This document shows positions 1,319 through 12,987 of a stretch of DNA of 37,325 nucleotides, piece after piece. The stretch is from Dehalococcoidia bacterium. GTDB lineage: Bacteria > Chloroflexota > Dehalococcoidia > SHYD01. Location of the stretch: positions 1-37,325 of the forward strand of contig SHYE01000003.1 in assembly GCA_009692935.1 (NCBI GenBank). The letters are read 5' to 3'. Each line of letters begins with the position of its first letter. Position 1 is the stretch's first letter. Below the pieces are notes generated by a model. The model was not told the origin of the DNA and made no database searches. It was given only the letters and a program-made list of their open reading frames with translations. A program made the translations under genes and the position numbers.

Positions 1319-2992
1319 CTAGTCAAGGCGGAACCGCGCCTGGTTTTCGCCCAGGCGCATCAGCACGGCGTCGACACCGCCACTGAGGTCTCCTGCCGTT
1401 GCGGCGTCCAGCAGCGCTTCAACCTGCTGGCGAAGTCCGGGCGTATCTTGGTTGGTCAGCTTGAGGAGGCGCTGCGTGCCGGCATCCCATCCCAGCACTA
1501 TCACTGGGAGACCTCCCGGCGCTGCTCGCCAGGTTGAGACAGCGCTGCGCACGTGATCCGCGCACTGCGACGCACAACAATGCACCTCAGAGCGGGTGAT
1601 AACACCGGCCCGCTGCGTGAAATCGACTGCGCTGAACGGCGGCAGCAGGGCGAAGGGCGAGCTAAACCCCCACAGCCAGGTGCGCAGCGCTGGATCGGAG
1701 CCCGTTGGCGGTGCGCCAAGCACCACCAAGGTGCCGGCCGGCGCAGCGTTGAGCTGCTCCCGAACATCGCGGGCTATCACGCTCGAAAAGTCGCCGGCCG
1801 CCTCCCACTCGCCCGATGTCGTACGCAGCAGCGCGTATGACCCCAACAGGAGCAAGAGCCCTCCCCCCGCCACTGACCCTCTGGCCACCCTTGAGCCGCG
1901 GTCCCAAGGCACCCAGGCCAAGAGGGCGCAGCAAAGCGCGAGGCCGGCCGAGGTGAGGTACAGGTGGTGAGCCGTGAAATAGCCCACCACCGCTAAAGGC
2001 CCTACGGTCGCCAGCCACCAGAAGGGTCCCAGGTAGAGCAGGCGCCACCACGTTCCCTTTGGCAGCACAGCCCGCCGGACACAAGCAACCACGAAAGCTC
2101 CGCCCAGGCGGGCCAACCCCAGAACAACAGACAGTGTGTCCCAACCGGCTACCGGGCGCTCCAACCCCGTGAGCGCAGCGACCAGATAGGTTGGTTGTCG
2201 CCGCAGGAACTGCTCCACTAAGCCCATGCCCAGAAGGTCCTCCCGGACTGCGTTGCTGAAGAGCAGCAGCCGCAGGATCAGATACCCAACGGTCAGCAGC
2301 ACAAACGGAGCAAGGGCGCCCCACGCGGCGCGGGTACGTAGGCGCGGGCATCCACCGTGCACCAGGTCCCAGCACACCAGGGCCACGGGTAGCACAATCG
2401 CCGACTGCTTGCTGAACAAAGCCAGGAAGCAAGACATCAGCGCCAGGCTGTACCATCAGGCGCCTCGCTTAGTTCGCCAGAAGTGGTAGGCCAACAGCGT
2501 CAGAAGCATGAACAGTGACGGCAGCGAATCGGCCCGCCCGCTGATCCAGACCACCGTCTCGGCATGCGCGGGCATCAGCGCGAAAAGCACCGCGGCGAAA
2601 GCGGCGCCAAGCCAAGGGAGCGCTGCACCGCTTCGGGCCAACGCCAGCACCAGCAGCGTGTTCCCCAGGTGCAGCAAGATGTTCGTCACGTGGTAGCCGA
2701 CGGGGTTCGCCGCGCCCCAACGCGCGTCCAGCCAATACGAGAAGGCGAGGGTCGGCCTGATCTCGTCGGCGCGGTACCCGTAGATGGTCTCCGTCCAAGG
2801 CGCTGCGAACAGGCTCAGGAAGTGCGCCGGCGGTTTGTCCCACAACAGCCAAATGAGCCCGAAGTCATCGGAGAGGAAGTAGCCGTGCAGCGCGCCCAGG
2901 AACGGCAGCACTGCGGCCAGGGTGGCGACCGCCGTGCTCAGCAGCCTTGGCGAGCGGAAGGCGCCCATCCTGCGCACTAGTAGGCGATGCAT
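1319..2992 (-). pseudogene. Polytopic membrane glycosyltransferase (GT-C/PMT-TMTC-like) broken by an in-frame TGA at 2456-2458
   Basis: ORFs 2456..2992 and 1319..2437 share a frame (RGA*WYSLALMSCFLALFSKQ). Motifs FLSDD, YHVTNILLH, HAETVVWISGR and LFSK are typical of GT-C membrane glycosyltransferases. Confidence 0.75.
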
Positions 2993-3013
2993 GTGGACTG
3001 ATATTCGGCGAGG

Positions 3014-8132: not shown

Positions 8133-8912
8133 ATGCGCACCAACACCACCAAAGCCAAGCTCGCCCAGGGCAAGACCGTCTTCGGGGCCATCGTCAGCTC
8201 CTACGCGCCCGATATGGTGGAGATGCTCGGCCTCATCGGCTACGACTTCGTGTTCTTGGATTGCGAGCACGGCCCCATGAGCTGGGACCAGGTGGAAAAC
8301 ATGGTGCGGGCCGCCGAGCTGTTCGGCATCACCCCCATCGCCCGCGTGCCCGACCAGGGAGCATCCACCCTGCTGCGATACCTGGACCGCGGCGTGCAGG
8401 GCGTGATTGTGCCGCACGTGAATACGCGGGAGCAGGCCGAACGGGTGGCCGCGGCCTGCCGCTACTATCCCGACGGCCAGCGCGGCGCCGCCAGCGGCCG
8501 CGCCCACGACTACAACGTTGGCGTGGGCCGCGAAGAGAGCATGGCCTGGATCAACAGCCAGGTGCTGGTGATTCCCATGTGCGAGGAGGTGGAGGCCACC
8601 AAGAACCTGGAGCAGATTCTGCAAGTGCCGGGGGTCGATGTGGTGCACGTGGCGTCGAACGACTTGGCGCAGAGCATGGGTAATCCGCCCATGGCCGAGG
8701 TACGCACGCTGATGGCCGACCTCATGCGCCGCATTCGCGCCGGGGGCAAACACGCGGGATGCGGCGGCAACTCGCCCAGCGATACGGCAGGCGTCGCAGC
8801 GCTCATGGACCAGGGGGCAGACTTTGTGACGGTGCAGGCGCTGGGCCTGATGCGTACGGGCGCCGACGCGTTCCGCCACGGGGTGGAGGCCGCGGTGAAG
8901 CGGTCGGCATGA
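8133..8912 (+). CDS. HpcH/HpaI aldolase family protein
   Basis: GYDFVFLDCEHG, ARVP, LDRGVQGVIVPHV, MCEEVEA..GVDVV..NDL. Confidence 0.9.
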   Translation: MRTNTTKAKLAQGKTVFGAIVSSYAPDMVEMLGLIGYDFVFLDCEHGPMSWDQVENMVRAAELFGITPIARVPDQGASTLLRYLDRGVQGVIVPHVNTREQAERVAAACRYYPDGQRGAASGRAHDYNVGVGREESMAWINSQVLVIPMCEEVEATKNLEQILQVPGVDVVHVASNDLAQSMGNPPMAEVRTLMADLMRRIRAGGKHAGCGGNSPSDTAGVAALMDQGADFVTVQALGLMRTGADAFRHGVEAAVKRSA

Positions 8913-9105
8913 CACCAACGCGCCCCCACCCGACACAGCGGGCCCTCCTGCGGCCTCTCCAGGGTGCAGGGCGTTGTTGCAGGTAACGCGCAGGCAGCGA
9001 AGGGGTGTCCACGAGTGCTCCCCCCCTTGAAGGGAGGAGCTTGAGGAGGGTGGAACGTCCCGCGGATTACCGCGTACCACAAAGCGGTTCACCCGCTCCC
9101 CAAGT

Positions 9106-9133
9106 TTGACAGGGGTGTCTCGCACCCTATAGT
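9106..9133 (+). promoter_or_regulatory. Sigma70-type promoter of the substrate-binding protein gene, with a palindromic spacer (possible operator)
   Basis: TTGACA, 16-nt spacer, TATAGT; the spacer contains gggtg-tctcg-caccc. Confidence 0.6.
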
Positions 9134-9196
9134 TTGACCTAATCCCGCGGTGCTCTCGCATCGGACACTCGCATCGCGGCTCATCGGAGGCTTGGC

Positions 9197-11989
9197 ATGT
9201 CACACCGTAGTCATTGGCGTTCAGGTTGGGCTCTCGCCGCACTCTCCAGCCTTGCGCTGTGCATTGGCTGCAACACGCCCACACCGCCGGCACCCTCCCC
9301 GGCGGGCGACGCCAGCGGGCCAGTACAGCCCAAGGTGAACCGCGTGGTGCTCTCGCTCGACCCGCAAGCCACCGAGAGCAACCAGGCCATCGACAGCGGC
9401 CTTGGGCTGCGGCCGATGTACGAGACACTGCTGGATGTTAGCCTCGACACCGGCAAGTTCGTGCCCATGCTTGCGGAATCGTGGGCCATTGGCAGTGGCG
9501 GTACCAGCATTCAGTTCAAGCTGCGCAAGGGCGTCCCGTTCCATGACGGCAAAGGCGAACTCACGTCGAAGGATGTCGACGCCACCTATGAGGCCATTGC
9601 CACCAGCCAGCTTACGGGCACCACCGTCACCTACGTGCGCACCAACGTGGATCGCCGGGAATTGCCCAACGACTACGAGATCATCCTGCACATGAAGCAG
9701 CCCGACTCGCAGTTCCTGGAGTATGTCTCTAGCCAGACCCAGGGCGCCTACATCATCAACGCCGCACAGCTATCAGCCGAAGGGCAGCCCAACACCGCCG
9801 GCAAGCCCTTGGTGGGTACCGCAGGACCACTTGTAACTGTACCAGCTGACCTAGGTCCAGCTCCTGCCCTCAGCACACAATCCTATGTCAATTCCAAAAA
9901 TCTAGATTTCTTCAGTGAAAACTTTCCTCGAGACCACGGTGGCATCAATCCGTTGAGTGCAGAGGCAGTGGCCTTTTTCAAATATCCCGATGGTACACAA
10001 GGCTTGGTTTCCAGCATAAATCAGTACTGGCAAAATGGCGTAATGATGTCAAGAGATTTGGCTCATCCGGGTCGTATTGTGTTTTATAAAAAGATGGCAA
10101 CTGCATCTGATTGGCAAACACATGCGGTCTCTGTGCAACAGCAGGCACGGCCCTGTATTCACGCTCGTAAAGTTCTTGTCGCAGACTTCAACAGAGACTT
10201 GATTCCAGATTTTGCAATCATGTGTCATGGCTGGGATGCACATCCATATCCAGGCGAACGCAACACAATACTGCTGAGCCAAAGCGATGGATATGTGCTG
10301 GCATACATGTCAAATCGTATTGACTTTCATCACGGTGGCAGTACCGCAGACTTCAACGGTGACAGAATACCCGACATTGCTGTAACTACCAAATCGGGAA
10401 TTCGTGTGTACATCAACAACGGCACTGGCTCTTTTACGGAGTCATCCACTTACACAATTCCAGTAGTCAGAACAGCATTCCATGTCGAGTTAGTTGATCT
10501 CAATGGTGATGGCCACTTTGATGTTGTTGCCGGCGGTCACGAATGGGATGATGCTACTCGCATTATTATCAATCCAGGAAACAATCAATTTGGCAATGCC
10601 AGATCAGATACTATATCCACGGTTCCGGGCGCCGGGGTTATTGTTGATTTTGTATACGCTCCGTCAAACAATTCCTTGTACATTTTGAGAACCGGCGACG
10701 GACGAAACAATGGCACAGTATTTTATCAAGGACTTTGGCTACAAAAATACTCACTGACTACCAGAATCAGCACAGTTGTATTGACAGATCCAAATTGGAC
10801 GGATTCACGTTTTGGATATCCTTCGCGTTGGCTTAGATGGATCGACGAAGAAAACGGTTATATTGTAAGCCAATGGGGCAATGCAATTCGAATCAAGGTG
10901 GACTAATTTTTTTAATCAGCCCTCCTTGAAATATTTATGGTTAACACCCATCCCTACGAATACGTCACCCGCGAACTGAACCAGTTCCTTCGCTTCAAGC
11001 GAGTGGACTACAAGCATTGGCGGGCGACGCCCGATTTCCCCGAAATGGAGATTCGCTGGGTGCGCGAACCCTCCACCCGCATGGCGGCGCTGATAGCCGG
11101 TGAAGCCCACCTGGCGGCCCTACCCGAAGACCAGATCAAGAACGCCGAGGGCCGCGGCATGAAGGCTATCCGCGGCCGGGTGCCCGCCTTCCGCGCCATC
11201 CTCAACTTCCATTGCTGCCTGGCGAAGGAGCCGTTTGACCCGAACTCGGGCTACGTCAACCCGAACACCCCGCTGGCGGACGTCCGCATCCGCAAGGCGC
11301 TGAACAAGGCCATCAACCGCGATGAGTTGAACAAGGCCTTCTTCGGCGGCAAGGGCGAGCTGATCCACAACAACCCGTATCACCCCACTAAGCCGGGCTG
11401 GAACCCGGCCTGGCAACAGCGGTATCAAGACGCCTACGGTTTTGACTTGGCGCAAGCAAAGGTGCTGGTGGCGCAAGCCGGCTATGGGCCTAGCAACCCC
11501 CTCAAGCTGAACCTGGTGATTCAGCCGACCCGCGGTCTGGCCGCGGCAGCTGACGTCGTGGAAGCGGTCGGCAGCTACTGGCGCAACAACCTGGGGGCCG
11601 AGGTGAAGCTGATCACCATCACCGGCACCACCGAGCTGCGCGCGCCCGACGCCAACGACCACATTGTGATGTGGGCCACCAGCGCCAGCATGTGGGCCGG
11701 CACCGCCAACTACGGCACGGCGCTCATCGAAAGCAACCGCATCTGGGGGTGGGGCCTGCCCGACGCTGACCTCGTGCTCAGAGAGATAGCTAGCACCCTC
11801 GACGAGAAGAAGTCGGAGGAGCTGTGGCGCAAGATGGGCGACATCTACTTCAACAAGTACAAGTTCATCCCGCTGCACTACCTGCCGGTGGAGATTGTGG
11901 CTAACCCGCAAATCGTGGCCGACTACGTGTTCCCCGGCTCCATCTCCACCAACTGGACGCACCTGGAGCACCTGAAGGCGGCGCGGTAG
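9197..11989 (+). pseudogene. ABC transporter substrate-binding lipoprotein (family 5, DppA/OppA-like) interrupted by a 1128-bp insert
   Basis: N-half: lipobox CIGC, PMLAESW, FKLRKGVPFHDG..LTSKDV, ending PLVGTA. C-half resumes PYEY..EPSTRMAALIAGE..DVRIRKALNKAINR. Both halves are in the same frame and rejoin to 554 aa. Confidence 0.88.
9824..10951 (+). other. Foreign low-GC insert: 5'-truncated FG-GAP/VCBS repeat gene plus 45 nt downstream
   Basis: Abrupt GC drop (sampled 60-nt lines 35-47% versus about 60% in a flanking line). Three repeats VADFNRDLIPD, TADFNGDRIPD, LVDLNGDGHFD. Stop TAA at 10904-10906. Boundaries uncertain by a few nt. Confidence 0.85.
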
Positions 11990-12000
11990 CGCGCTATAAA

Positions 12001-12108
12001 CCTCCCCCTAGCAGGGGGAGGTTAGGAGGGGGTTGAAGTTCTGCCGCGAGCCCGCTTCTCGGCAACGCTTCGACCCTCCTCTAACTCCTCCCTGCTAGGG
12101 AGGAGAAC
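12001..12108. repeat. Paired REP-like inverted repeat
   Basis: cctccccctagcagggggaggttaggaggggg ... ccctcctctaactcctccctgctagggaggag. Related units at about 9018-9052, 33500-33538 and 34390-34425. Confidence 0.7.
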
Positions 12109-12117
12109 CGGAAGGAT

Positions 12118-12155
12118 AGTAAGCGGCCCCGGTCAGGTGACTGGGGCCGCTTACT
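12118..12155. terminator. Long hairpin between convergent genes (probable bidirectional terminator)
   Basis: agtaagcggccccggtc..gactggggccgcttact forms a near-perfect stem; no clear U-tract. Confidence 0.6.
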
Positions 12156-12174
12156 GCCTGCTTTGGCCTTGGGG

Positions 12175-12987
12175 TTAGCCGAAGAAGTCGGTGATGGCCT
12201 GCGAGAACTCTTCAGAGTTCTCGTAGTGCACCTGGTGGGCACCGGTCTCGATGATCACCAGCTTCGAGCTGGGTACCAACTCCACCAGCTTCTCGGCGGT
12301 CTGGCTGGTAGGGTCGCCGCGGCCGATGAGGAACAGCGTGGGCATGGTGAGGTACGGCAACCGGCGCAGCAGGTTGAACCGCACCCGGTTGGCGCCGTCG
12401 GCCATAGTCTTCATCATGTCGCCGTAGGCTTCCGCATAGCCCGGCTCGTTCAACTTGCGGACCTTCGCCGCCACCAAAGCGTCGAACTCGGCCGGGCTGG
12501 CGTCCTTCATCATCGGCGTCAGCGCCTGCCGCACCTTCTCCTCGCTCGGCACGTCGAAGCTGGCCAGCCGGGCGTTAGCGGCGCCGTGAAAGCCGGGGTT
12601 GCCGGTCATTACCACCTTGTCCACCCGGTGCGGACTCTCGTACGCCAGCAGGCCGGCGATCCAGCCGCCCATGGTGGCGCCCACGATGTGGCTGCTGCGA
12701 ATACCCAGCGCGTCCTGGAACTCGCGCACGAACTCCGTCATGTCGGGGAACGCATCGACGGTGGGGTTGTCGCGAATGTCGCCGGGAGGCCAGCCGATGA
12801 AGTCGGGTACCAACACCCGGTAGCGCGTGCTCAGGTAGGGCAAAGCCACGCGGAAATCGTCGGCGCCCCCTATCACCGAGGCGCCGTGCAGCAGGATCAC
12901 GGGATGTCCCGTGCCCGCCTCCAGGTAGCGGGTCTTACCGTGGCTCAGGGTTACGTCTTTGCTTGCGATGGCTGCGGTGGTGGTCAT
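12175..12987 (-). CDS. Alpha/beta hydrolase (meta-cleavage product hydrolase-like)
   Basis: YLEAGTGHPVILLHG, HIVGATMGG, PTLFLIGRGD, GAHQVH; AGGAG RBS before ATG 12987. Confidence 0.85.
   Translation of the reverse strand: MTTTAAIASKDVTLSHGKTRYLEAGTGHPVILLHGASVIGGADDFRVALPYLSTRYRVLVPDFIGWPPGDIRDNPTVDAFPDMTEFVREFQDALGIRSSHIVGATMGGWIAGLLAYESPHRVDKVVMTGNPGFHGAANARLASFDVPSEEKVRQALTPMMKDASPAEFDALVAAKVRKLNEPGYAEAYGDMMKTMADGANRVRFNLLRRLPYLTMPTLFLIGRGDPTSQTAEKLVELVPSSKLVIIETGAHQVHYENSEEFSQAITDFFG

Follow-up and report, generated by a model that had tools for sequence, protein, structure and literature searches.

Organization of the locus

The window analysed here is a 37,325-nt stretch of a Dehalococcoidia genome, G000, which is a freshwater metagenome bin of 141 contigs that is 57% complete and has a GC content of 64.6%. 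Its forward strand carries a gene for a family-5 substrate-binding protein (SBP) in two parts. The N part, of 209 codons (9197..9823), matches positions 1-117 of the SBP_bac_5 profile (PF00496) with 60.8 bits, and the C part, of 345 codons (10952-11986), matches positions 116-358 with 104 bits, so that both halves exceed the Pfam gathering score of 32.4 bits. The interruption falls between profile positions 116 and 117, and the profile is not contained in one polypeptide but in two open reading frames (ORFs), with 1128 nt and a stop codon between them. Upstream, on the same strand, lies TTGACA-16-TATAGT (9106..9133), which is promoter-like by consensus match only (11 of 12 positions), and a GGAGG at 9186-9190 precedes the ATG at 9197 by 6 nt. 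The leader, ...LALCIGC-NTPTPP, is of the lipoprotein type. It aligns with GVGC, GVAC, AAAC and LAAC of four orthologs, the cysteine is aligned in the five sequences that cover the leader, and we take it to be the lipobox cysteine as this motif is generally defined. The neighbouring genes encode an HpcH/HpaI aldolase, an alpha/beta hydrolase and an FAA hydrolase, with no permease or ATPase genes adjacent, and the SBP gene is an orphan.

The two parts are separated by an insert of 1128 nt with 44.9% GC, located at 9824..10951 on the plus strand. Boundaries at 9823-10950 are equally possible, since the match between the window and another sequence context extends up to 10950, and the length is the same under either choice. 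The insert contains a 5'-truncated FG-GAP beta-propeller gene in the sense orientation (9824..10906, 360 codons plus a TAA at 10904-10906), followed by an AT-rich tail of 45 nt (10907..10951). Translation from 9197 gives a chimeric ORF of 569 aa (9197..10906, plus strand), in which 209 aa of the SBP, including the leader, are fused in frame to the propeller. Within the tail, an ATG at 10937, in frame with 10952, opens a second plus-strand ORF of 350 aa (10937..11989), which consists of five insert-tail codons (MVNTH) and the 345 SBP codons. It has no signal peptide, and the sequence before this ATG contains no Shine-Dalgarno-like motif. The original prediction, made from the letters of the window, had described this arrangement, namely an abrupt drop in GC at 9824 with a return at 10951, a 554-aa protein restored by excision, and a 569-aa chimera with three DxNxD FG-GAP repeats that ends in TAA plus 45 nt with an in-frame ATG, and all of these elements were found where it had placed them.

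When the insert is removed, the 209 and 345 residues add up to a protein of 554 aa. In all 13 full-length paralogs that match both parts, the halves join directly, without the gain or loss of any residue. The ortholog P0159 is uninterrupted and exactly 554 aa long, reads ...GKPLAGTA-PYEF... across the site, and is 84% identical to the N part and 95% identical to the 350-aa ORF. Ortholog P0160 is likewise uninterrupted. In addition, the metagenome contig L022 is syntenic (aldolase, then SBP) and shows the empty site within a single 554-aa ORF. The uninterrupted allele that the prediction implied thus exists in close relatives. With these family-5 lipoproteins of the peptide/nickel type (P0159, P0160 and the L022 ORF) the gene shares its identity, its total length and the HpcH/HpaI aldolase upstream, and it differs from them in being interrupted. 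A combination of PF00496 and FG-GAP was found only in the window's own protein (P0001) among the 120 best matches listed, and these contain none of the full-length fusion homologs that would have spoken for an established family. A search among shorter proteins with residues 150-270, which cover the fusion, gave a single match, 67% identical over half of the query, and this match does not span the fusion.

Composition of the insert

The insert is DNA of foreign origin. Its GC fraction is 0.449, compared to 0.645 in the 1 kb to the left, 0.633 in the 1 kb to the right, and 0.646 in the genome. This corresponds to z = -7.8, and the lowest value among 1479 non-overlapping genome windows of 1128 nt is 0.543. 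The tetranucleotide composition of the insert lies at an L1 distance of 0.728 from that of the genome (z = 11.8), against a mean of 0.286, a standard deviation of 0.037 and a maximum of 0.539 for the same 1479 windows. By both measures, the insert is the most deviant stretch of the genome. Codon usage deviates as well, since GC at third codon positions (GC3) is 0.40 in the insert and 0.79 and 0.87 in the N and C parts of the SBP gene, respectively. The anomaly that had been suspected by eye is therefore borne out by tetranucleotide and codon statistics. The insert shows no amelioration at all towards the composition of the host, which speaks for a recent event.

The insert occurs once in G000 and was not found in 40 relatives, save for weak FG-GAP repeat matches in one of them (G012). 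Elsewhere in the bin only two more 500-nt windows fall below 50% GC, on contigs C45 and C62, and these are gradual dips rather than sharp inserts, so nothing indicates that G000 has captured DNA repeatedly. As a side observation, one of the two dips surrounds an ORF that, judged by eye, resembles a DNA methylase.

The truncated propeller gene and its probable donor

The ORF in the insert matches the Pfam families FG-GAP_3 (72.4 bits, cut-off 26.9) and FG-GAP (36.2 bits, cut-off 22.1). It corresponds to residues ~45-404 of a family of FG-GAP lipoproteins of ~400 aa, i.e., the 3' 90% of the gene. The fragment aligns over its full length to the ~360 C-terminal residues of all 12 stand-alone relatives compared (382-427 aa), to which it is 57-80% identical, and all 12 possess their own N-terminal, cysteine-containing leader, which the insert lacks. 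Compared to the stand-alone FG-GAP/VCBS-type lipoproteins (P0002-P0018, and the gene on contig L019), the whole propeller, the three motifs, the native C-terminus and the stop codon have been kept, whereas the native leader and first ~44 residues of P0002-P0018 are replaced by 209 residues of the host SBP. The three DxNxDxxxD motifs (D121/N123/D125/D129, D176/N178/D180/D184, and D225/N227/D229/D233) occupy invariant or nearly invariant columns, and motifs of this kind are generally interpreted as putative calcium-binding loops. All 27 invariant columns of a 58-sequence family alignment are intact in the insert. An AlphaFold2 (AF2) model of the propeller consists almost entirely of beta strands (pLDDT 92.5, pTM 0.91). 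Foldseek returned 174 PDB chains at E <= 0.001; those listed are mostly propellers, with TM scores of 0.4-0.56, and include FG-GAP-type lectins and CRTAC1. The fragment is thus predicted to adopt a closed beta-propeller fold of the seven-blade type.

The propeller family sits on contigs of ~42% GC, some of which are classed as large phages. Relatives occur on two IMG/VR records of 103 kb and 91 kb (CheckV completeness 31% and 27%), one viral record with a relative is classed as a provirus, and a further relative lies on a 332-kb contig named uncultured Caudovirales phage by its source. The tetranucleotide L1 distance of the insert to L019, a viral contig of ~42% GC, is 0.33, and L019's own FG-GAP gene has a distance of 0.32. 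Nucleotide identity to L019 is 78.5% over window positions 9871-10906. The similarity ends at the stop codon, and the gene 3' of the L019 homolog is unlike the 45-nt tail in the window. The best non-self protein match is 78% identical, and no closer donor was found. On the basis of these database classifications, the donor was most likely a large freshwater phage. No PHROG family contains the insert protein, and a distant-mode blastn search of 50,697 phage records with the insert returned no match. The Terminase_6N and Phage_capsid Pfam models had no match in either IMG/VR record; both records are only 27-31% complete. A protein-pattern scan of genome contigs for a donor returned only four loci, with 26-37% identity.

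Read support for the junctions

Contigs from four public runs from two studies (X1-X4) were compared with the window. In X1, a contig of depth 6.72 spans 9638-10010 with no mismatches, and thereby covers 186 and 187 nt on either side of the left junction. Since X1 is probably the source sample of G000, this contig represents an independent assembly and not an independent sample. A second X1 contig spans 10921-11320, again with no mismatches, and consists of the final 30 nt of the insert followed by 370 nt of host sequence. Pieces of the insert and of the host have similar depths in all four runs: 6.72, 3.73 and 6.89 versus 5.31, 6.8 and 7.3 in X1, 3.53 versus 4.9 and 4.22 in X2, 2.2 and 3.1 versus 2.4 in X3, and 4.3 versus 3.8, 3.0 and 5.2 in X4. 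The coverage step expected of an artefact is absent. In X2-X4, no contig crosses either junction, and the stretches without cover include both junctions. A contig with the empty site (9823 joined to 10952) is not listed in any of the four runs, where cover at this position is thin. We do not regard the insertion as an artificial splice.

Of the two junctions, the right one is less secure. No public contig has at least 31 nt on both sides of 10950/10951, and the X1 contigs 10303-10950 and 10921-11320 share exactly 30 nt, which we take to be the overlap expected at a branch if contigs are built with k = 31. Public contigs indeed branch at this 30-nt word (10921..10950), which also occurs between a flank of 77% GC and a flank of 33% GC. 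Because of this branch and the other flanks, the link between the propeller and the C part of the SBP gene rests on the deposited contig and on the equal depths. Of the two artefacts that the original prediction had considered, assembly chimera and splice, neither is supported at the left junction, where the X1 contig crosses without mismatch, and a residual doubt is retained at the right junction.

The alternative context of the 30-nt word occurs in runs X1, X2 and X3. Within G000 the word is unique, down to 12-mers, and no copy was found in 400 other genomes of the class, in viral contigs or in metagenome contigs. Both alternative flanks gave no match in G000 (<=3 mismatches) or in viral contigs, and the high-GC flank gave none in 13 genomes (G000 and 12 relatives). 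The summed depth of the bin with the 30-mer is 21 in X1, 13.7 in X2 and 3.69 in X3, compared to about 12, 5 and 1.3 expected from four equal-depth contigs in that bin. For the alternative-context contigs, depths sum to about 47 (X1) and about 43 (X2), which are upper bounds because related propeller-gene contigs may share the bin. This excess, as an upper-bound estimate, hints that the alternative context comes from a more abundant genome. In X2, the bins for 10966-11193 are without cover while both loose ends are present, and the alternative context is therefore probably one continuous sequence. A CRISPR spacer was considered for the 30-mer and rejected, because its two flanks are unrelated to each other.

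Search for signatures of mobile elements

The insert bears no marks of an insertion sequence, transposon or MITE. No direct or inverted repeats flank it, no repeat pair brackets 9824 and 10951, and target-site duplication and terminal inverted repeats are absent. There is no transposase either, as the sole ORF in the insert is the propeller fragment, present in a single copy in G000. An intein was rejected, since the TAA at 10904-10906 breaks the frame and the only Pfam families matched in the insert are of the FG-GAP type, and group I and group II introns were rejected after an Rfam search of 9000-12300 (E <= 1) gave no match in the insert. Of note, the same search gave two sub-threshold matches to miRNA models, both on a palindrome at 12004-12102. 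As for integrase-mediated remnants, no integrase was found on the contig, since none of the four matches to PF00589 (tyrosine recombinase) in G000 lies on C108, and the empty site of L022 does not contain the 30-mer. These searches agree with the earlier reading that no target duplication, terminal repeats, recombinase or intron and intein motifs are visible. G000, at 57% completeness, yielded no match to Ku (PF02735) or to DNA_ligase_A_M (PF01068; ATP-dependent ligase). Among 12 relatives searched, Ku is present in three of seven genomes of the same family and in one further genome of the class.

Origin of the chimeric gene

Taken together, it is likely that a low-GC foreign fragment was joined into the SBP gene by illegitimate recombination, with no dedicated recombinase. 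A linear foreign piece would have been joined into a break within the orphan lipoprotein gene by an end-joining or template-switch type of event, with no host base lost or duplicated. It would have landed in the sense orientation with both junctions in frame by chance, for which the probability is about 1 in 18, and the SBP promoter, ribosome-binding site and leader would therefore now drive the 569-aa chimera. The last 345 SBP codons would have been left behind a stop codon, preceded only by the start codon of the insert tail and without a Shine-Dalgarno-like motif. Of the recent illegitimate capture that had been proposed originally, the event itself stands, given the foreign composition, the clean in-frame site, the uninterrupted orthologs and the left-junction contig; its recency is the more tentative part, and a working lipid-anchored propeller, as the prediction had it, is a putative product.

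Non-homologous end joining (NHEJ) often leaves a deletion or filler at junctions, whereas the junctions here have neither. In Sinorhizobium meliloti, heterologous DNA was captured experimentally at chromosomal double-strand breaks by NHEJ (Ku/LigD) (PMC6379672). The DNA captured there resembles our case in being a linear, non-homologous fragment without target duplication, terminal repeats or recombinase, and our case differs in being a natural event in an uncultured organism. [quoted passage not shown] It likewise involves ectopic DNA, two illegitimate joints and no element machinery, but unlike these microindels, the insert is 1128 nt long and no host bases were replaced (bioRxiv 10.1101/2023.11.22.568220).

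It is unlikely that the insertion is real but longer than assembled, with two copies of the 30-mer collapsed by the assembler. The true order would then be SBP-N, propeller, 30-mer, foreign DNA, high-GC segment, 30-mer and SBP-C. This would account for the two contexts that enter the 30-mer (the propeller and the 77% GC flank) and the two that leave it (SBP-C and the 33% GC flank), as well as for the missing public contigs with at least 31 nt on each side of 10950/10951. Assemblers normally use words of more than 30 nt, though, and neither alternative flank is present in G000. The excess depth, with its hint at a separate, more abundant genome, and the probable continuity of the alternative context in X2 also argue against it.

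Could the capture have been adaptive, with the chimera a selected, working surface lipoprotein and the phage propeller domesticated, possibly alongside a split SBP? The sense orientation with both junctions in frame would fit, as would the start of the fragment in the linker after the donor's lipoprotein leader, which preserves a leader/linker/propeller layout. The 27 intact invariant columns, the complete and confident AF2 fold, and the strong promoter-like site and Shine-Dalgarno motif upstream, as read from sequence, point the same way. Nevertheless, we consider it quite unlikely, since 1 in 18 is not small for a feature noticed after the fact, the partial SBP domain of 209 aa is unlikely to fold, and the unameliorated GC3 is in keeping with an event so recent that selection could not yet be read from it.

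A more specific functional scenario, in which the phage propeller is kept as a decoy or a shield resembling superinfection exclusion and the 30-nt word is a recurrent joint for fragments of the phage lineage, seems improbable to us. In this scenario, the propeller would be re-anchored by the host lipoprotein leader under a strong host promoter, and the 30-nt word would join a high-GC flank to AT-rich DNA, probably of a more abundant genome from the same lakes. The phage-encoded surface lipoproteins Ltp (PMC3952083) and T5 Llp (PMC9586334) are reported to mediate superinfection exclusion. The likeness, a phage-borne lipoprotein on the host envelope, is relevant to this speculative function only, and the insert propeller has no sequence or fold relation to them. 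In a literature search on phage superinfection-exclusion lipoproteins, none of the papers listed contained the term FG-GAP.

Very unlikely, in our view, is that the insert is a mobile element or prophage remnant with the 30-nt word as an att-like core in attL, attR, attP and attB contexts. Site-specific recombination does leave exact islands of identity like this 30-nt word, with two different contexts on each side, and viral records carry relatives of the propeller gene, including one record that is classed as a provirus. However, the left junction has no copy of the 30-mer, the empty sites of both L022 and P0159 show no trace of it, the contig has no integrase, the insert begins mid-gene, and the high-GC alternative flank is not the N part of the SBP gene.

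An artefact without cellular counterpart, be it a chimera formed during assembly or in the library or an in-silico splice, would suit a bin of 141 contigs at 57% completeness, for whose insert no donor closer than 78% identity was found and no junction-spanning protein fragment is on record elsewhere. It is hardly credible, because a separately built X1 contig crosses the left junction exactly at the depth of its neighbours, because the two breakpoints directly adjoin each other in the host gene and a mis-join would require words shared at both, and because two more runs, both of another study, contain exact pieces of the insert together with host pieces of comparable depth.

Consequences of the insertion

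Capture of the foreign DNA was real but probably accidental. Most likely, one SBP gene out of more than 20 paralogs was lost in consequence, and this loss would have been neutral and tolerated as such. It is possible that the 569-aa chimera, a predicted product, has gained a function. For the organism, the practical consequence is probably small, as one of many paralogous binding proteins is lost. For metagenome-assembled genomes, the locus serves as a check, since an apparent splice artefact proved to be backed by reads. Capture of heterologous DNA at breaks has already been shown in laboratory bacteria (PMC6379672). The locus described here provides a clean natural example of a chimeric gene formed in bacteria without mobile-element machinery, with the empty site visible in close relatives, and environmental cases of this kind, with read support, help to judge how often capture contributes to domain shuffling.

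A low-GC gene fragment interrupts an orphan solute-binding protein gene

The window is one entire contig of a metagenome-assembled genome of 1.74 Mb, which consists of 141 contigs and is 57% complete. As the original prediction had noticed, its GC content falls abruptly at positions 9824-10951, to 44.9% versus 64.5% and 63.3% in the flanking kilobases and 64.6% in the genome. The lowest value among 1479 non-overlapping genome windows of the same length (1128 nt) was 54.3%, which places this insert at z = -7.8. The suggested comparison of tetranucleotide and codon usage also set the insert apart, with a tetranucleotide distance to the genome of 0.728 versus 0.286 ± 0.037 for the 1479 windows (maximum 0.539; z = 11.8), and a GC3 of 0.40 versus 0.79 and 0.87 in the coding sequences before and after it. 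The insert occurs once in the genome. Contig C45 of the same genome shows, at 1400-3000, a gradual GC dip (~0.43-0.55), unlike the sharp insert of the window; an ORF within it resembles, as judged by eye, a DNA methyltransferase, and the region may be a restriction-modification island.

The window contains both ORFs described previously, a chimeric ORF of 569 aa (9197-10906) and a downstream ORF of 350 aa (10937-11989). The Pfam profile SBP_bac_5 of family-5 ABC solute-binding proteins (SBPs) is matched over profile positions 1-117 in the former and 116-358 in the latter, and FG-GAP_3 and FG-GAP matches are located in the low-GC part. The SBP halves on either side of the insert, an N part of 209 residues and a C part of 345 residues, were compared separately with all full-length paralogous ORFs that match both (12 from this genome and one from the other genome of the genus), and in 13/13 the N part ended exactly where the C part began, with neither gaps nor additional residues. 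Searching 5.8 billion proteins for matches to the C part, followed by alignment, yielded four orthologs that lack the interruption (P0159, P0160, P0161, and P0162). P0159 (554 aa) matches the C part at 95% and the N part at 84% identity and reads ...GKPLAGTA-PYEF... at the site, and P0160 (550 aa) shows 89% identity. An uninterrupted allele was also found in synteny with the window, on a metagenome contig (L022; 4070 nt, 66% GC) with nucleotide identities of 86.5% for the aldolase gene, 79.7% for the SBP N part and 85.4% for the C part; its SBP gene is a single 554-aa ORF, in which the empty site reads ...GGCACC GGG CCT TAC.... Thus, excision restores a 554-aa SBP without loss, as had been proposed, and the insertion is specific to this lineage.

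The SBP gene is an orphan, flanked by an HpcH/HpaI aldolase gene on one side and two hydrolase genes on the other. A near-consensus promoter-like site lies at 9106-9133, GGAGG is located 6 nt ahead of the ATG, and the leader Cys is kept among orthologs. The SBP family is much expanded, with 20 matches in this genome and 36 in the 55% complete congener; their mutual identity is mostly 36-47%, and many are apparently full-length (~550-600 aa). In the protein search, two paralogous matches were labelled Chloroflexota by their source. Directly 3' of the gene lies a G+C-rich palindromic element (arms 12006-12049 and 12057-12100), and directly 5' a related arm (9021-9055) that is 83% complementary to 12069-12103, so that the pair brackets the entire gene. 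This palindromic repeat is dispersed, with 35 blastn-short matches on 25 contigs of the genome, self-matches included (32 for query 12000-12110 and 3 for 9015-9060), and its summed contig depth was ~80 in the public run X1, described below. In Rfam, it matched only miRNA models, all below threshold.

The insert is predicted to encode a complete propeller domain

The 360 codons of the insert can be aligned over their full length with the last ~360 residues of stand-alone proteins of ~380-430 aa, at 57-80% identity to 12 aligned relatives; the best non-self match in the protein search was 78%. Each of the 12 relatives begins with a Cys-containing leader of its own and then has a linker rich in Gly, Pro and Thr. 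The insert starts within this linker, includes the native C-terminus (...IRIKVD) and stop codon, and extends 45 nt further. None of the 27 invariant columns in a 58-sequence family alignment is disturbed. An AlphaFold2 model built from this alignment (pLDDT 92.5, pTM 0.91) consists almost entirely of beta strands, and its PDB neighbours in the Foldseek listing are for the most part beta-propellers, among them FG-GAP-type fungal lectins and CRTAC1 (TM 0.4-0.56, identity 10-16%). The model and its neighbours indicate that the fragment encodes a complete propeller domain.

Consequences for the host

Judging from the sequence, the promoter-like site, SD and leader of the SBP gene would now head the 569-aa chimera, in which the leader-spacer-propeller layout is kept. 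A working SBP is unlikely, because the 350-aa ORF lacks a signal peptide and an SD-like motif. The SBP halves and the propeller ORF carry no further lesions and the composition of the insert is unameliorated, so the event is probably recent. Neutral gene loss is the most likely reading; an adaptive chimera is possible, but has a low probability. By our arithmetic, the chance of sense orientation together with a left joint and an ATG (10937) that are both in frame is ~1 in 18. This is noteworthy, but carries limited weight because the calculation followed the observation.

Support for the junctions in public sequencing runs

Parts of the stretch occur in four public runs of freshwater samples (X1-X4), which belong to two studies, and their assembled contigs were compared with the window over 8800-12200. 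Of the sampled words, 91% occur in X1, probably the sample from which the genome was assembled. The left junction is crossed by a 373-nt X1 contig (9638-10010; depth 6.72) with 186 and 187 nt on its two sides, and two further X1 contigs cover 10303-10950 (depth 6.89) and 10921-11320 (depth 6.8), the latter comprising the final 30 nt of the insert and 370 nt of host sequence; none of the three has a mismatch. The last two overlap by exactly 30 nt, and these 30 nt (10921-10950) are matched alone by one or more other contigs in X1, X2, and X3, with flanks of 77% GC before 10921 and 33% GC after 10950. Provided that the public contigs come from assembly with 31-letter words, this 30-mer would be a branch point, and in that case the contigs alone leave the pairing of left and right arms ambiguous. 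The deposited contig and the equal depths of the three X1 contigs support the right-end arrangement of the window. X2 has no cover directly right of 10950, yet contains both loose ends, which points to an unbroken alternative arrangement in this run.

Exact pieces of insert and host flank co-occur in 4/4 runs, at similar depths for insert and host (X1, ~4-7 and 5-7; X2, 3.5 and 4-5; X3, 2-3 and 2.4; X4, 4.3 and 3-5). This is expected if both form one molecule; for an insert from a separate phage population, the agreement would be accidental. A purely computational artefact, which the original prediction had kept as an option, is very unlikely, as it requires two mis-joins with host breakpoints adjacent to the nucleotide; the bridged left junction and the similar depths largely refute it, with the right junction as a caveat.

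An X2 contig (10740-10902) that ends one base short of the stop codon departs from the window at two sites, both of which alter the protein: 10770 G>T (Ser to Ile) and 10784 A>G (Thr to Ala, with Ala being the consensus of the family). Almost identical variants are thus in circulation, and the contig suggests a close relative, either a donor lineage or a second host strain, in the same water.

No trace of the second context of the 30-mer was found in this genome, in 400 other genomes of its class, or in collections of viral and metagenome contigs. The summed depth at the 30-mer appears higher than that of the host, hinting that its carrier is more abundant than the host, although this estimate is an upper bound. 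The second context may reflect a mosaic joint within the donor phage lineage or another capture event, in a different high-GC genome; alternatively, it may indicate that the insert extends further than the assembly shows.

A large freshwater phage as plausible donor type

The closest DNA relative of the propeller gene (L019), from a 103-kb IMG/VR record of 42% GC, shares 79% amino acid identity with the insert propeller and 78.5% nucleotide identity over 9871-10906. The tetranucleotide distance to L019 is 0.33 for the insert and 0.32 for the propeller gene of L019 itself. Another relative derives from a 91-kb IMG/VR record of 40% GC, and further family members come from contigs of 315-332 kb, including one that its source names an uncultured Caudovirales phage. 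Both IMG/VR records are rated 27-31% complete (CheckV-type), which together with the 315-332 kb sister contigs points to genomes of ~330 kb. Based on these database labels, a ~330-kb freshwater phage lineage is plausible as donor type. The family has no PHROG, and the two record fragments gave no terminase or capsid match. In L019 (1-11104), the genes around the propeller gene encode two hydroxylases resembling Asp/Arg beta-hydroxylases, a nuclease of the SNase type, a member of the nitroreductase family, an AAA_28/thymidylate-kinase-like protein and an endolysin-like cell-wall hydrolase.

Mode of insertion

In agreement with the original prediction, repeat searches found no target duplication or terminal repeat at the insert ends, Rfam detected no ribozyme in the insert, and none of the four tyrosine-recombinase matches of the genome lies on this contig. 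The insert contains no ORF other than the 5'-truncated propeller gene, and the empty site in L022 shows no similarity to the 30-mer. The boundaries are ambiguous by one base (9823-10950 or 9824-10951), the only visible hint of microhomology. The proposed illegitimate capture is supported by the lack of an element signature, the truncated fragment and the empty site in L022. Bacterial NHEJ is reported to capture heterologous DNA at genomic breaks, as shown experimentally (PMC6379672), and double illegitimate recombination of transforming DNA is described as a second known route (bioRxiv 10.1101/2023.11.22.568220). Ku is present in 3/7 genomes of the same family. Searches for Ku and for an ATP-dependent ligase gave no match in the 57% complete genome or the 55% complete congener. 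A 5'-truncated gene fragment bluntly joined into a coding sequence is what is expected for break capture, and a stray linear foreign fragment may have been captured at a chromosome break within the SBP gene. The insertion is a further example of an already known kind of event.
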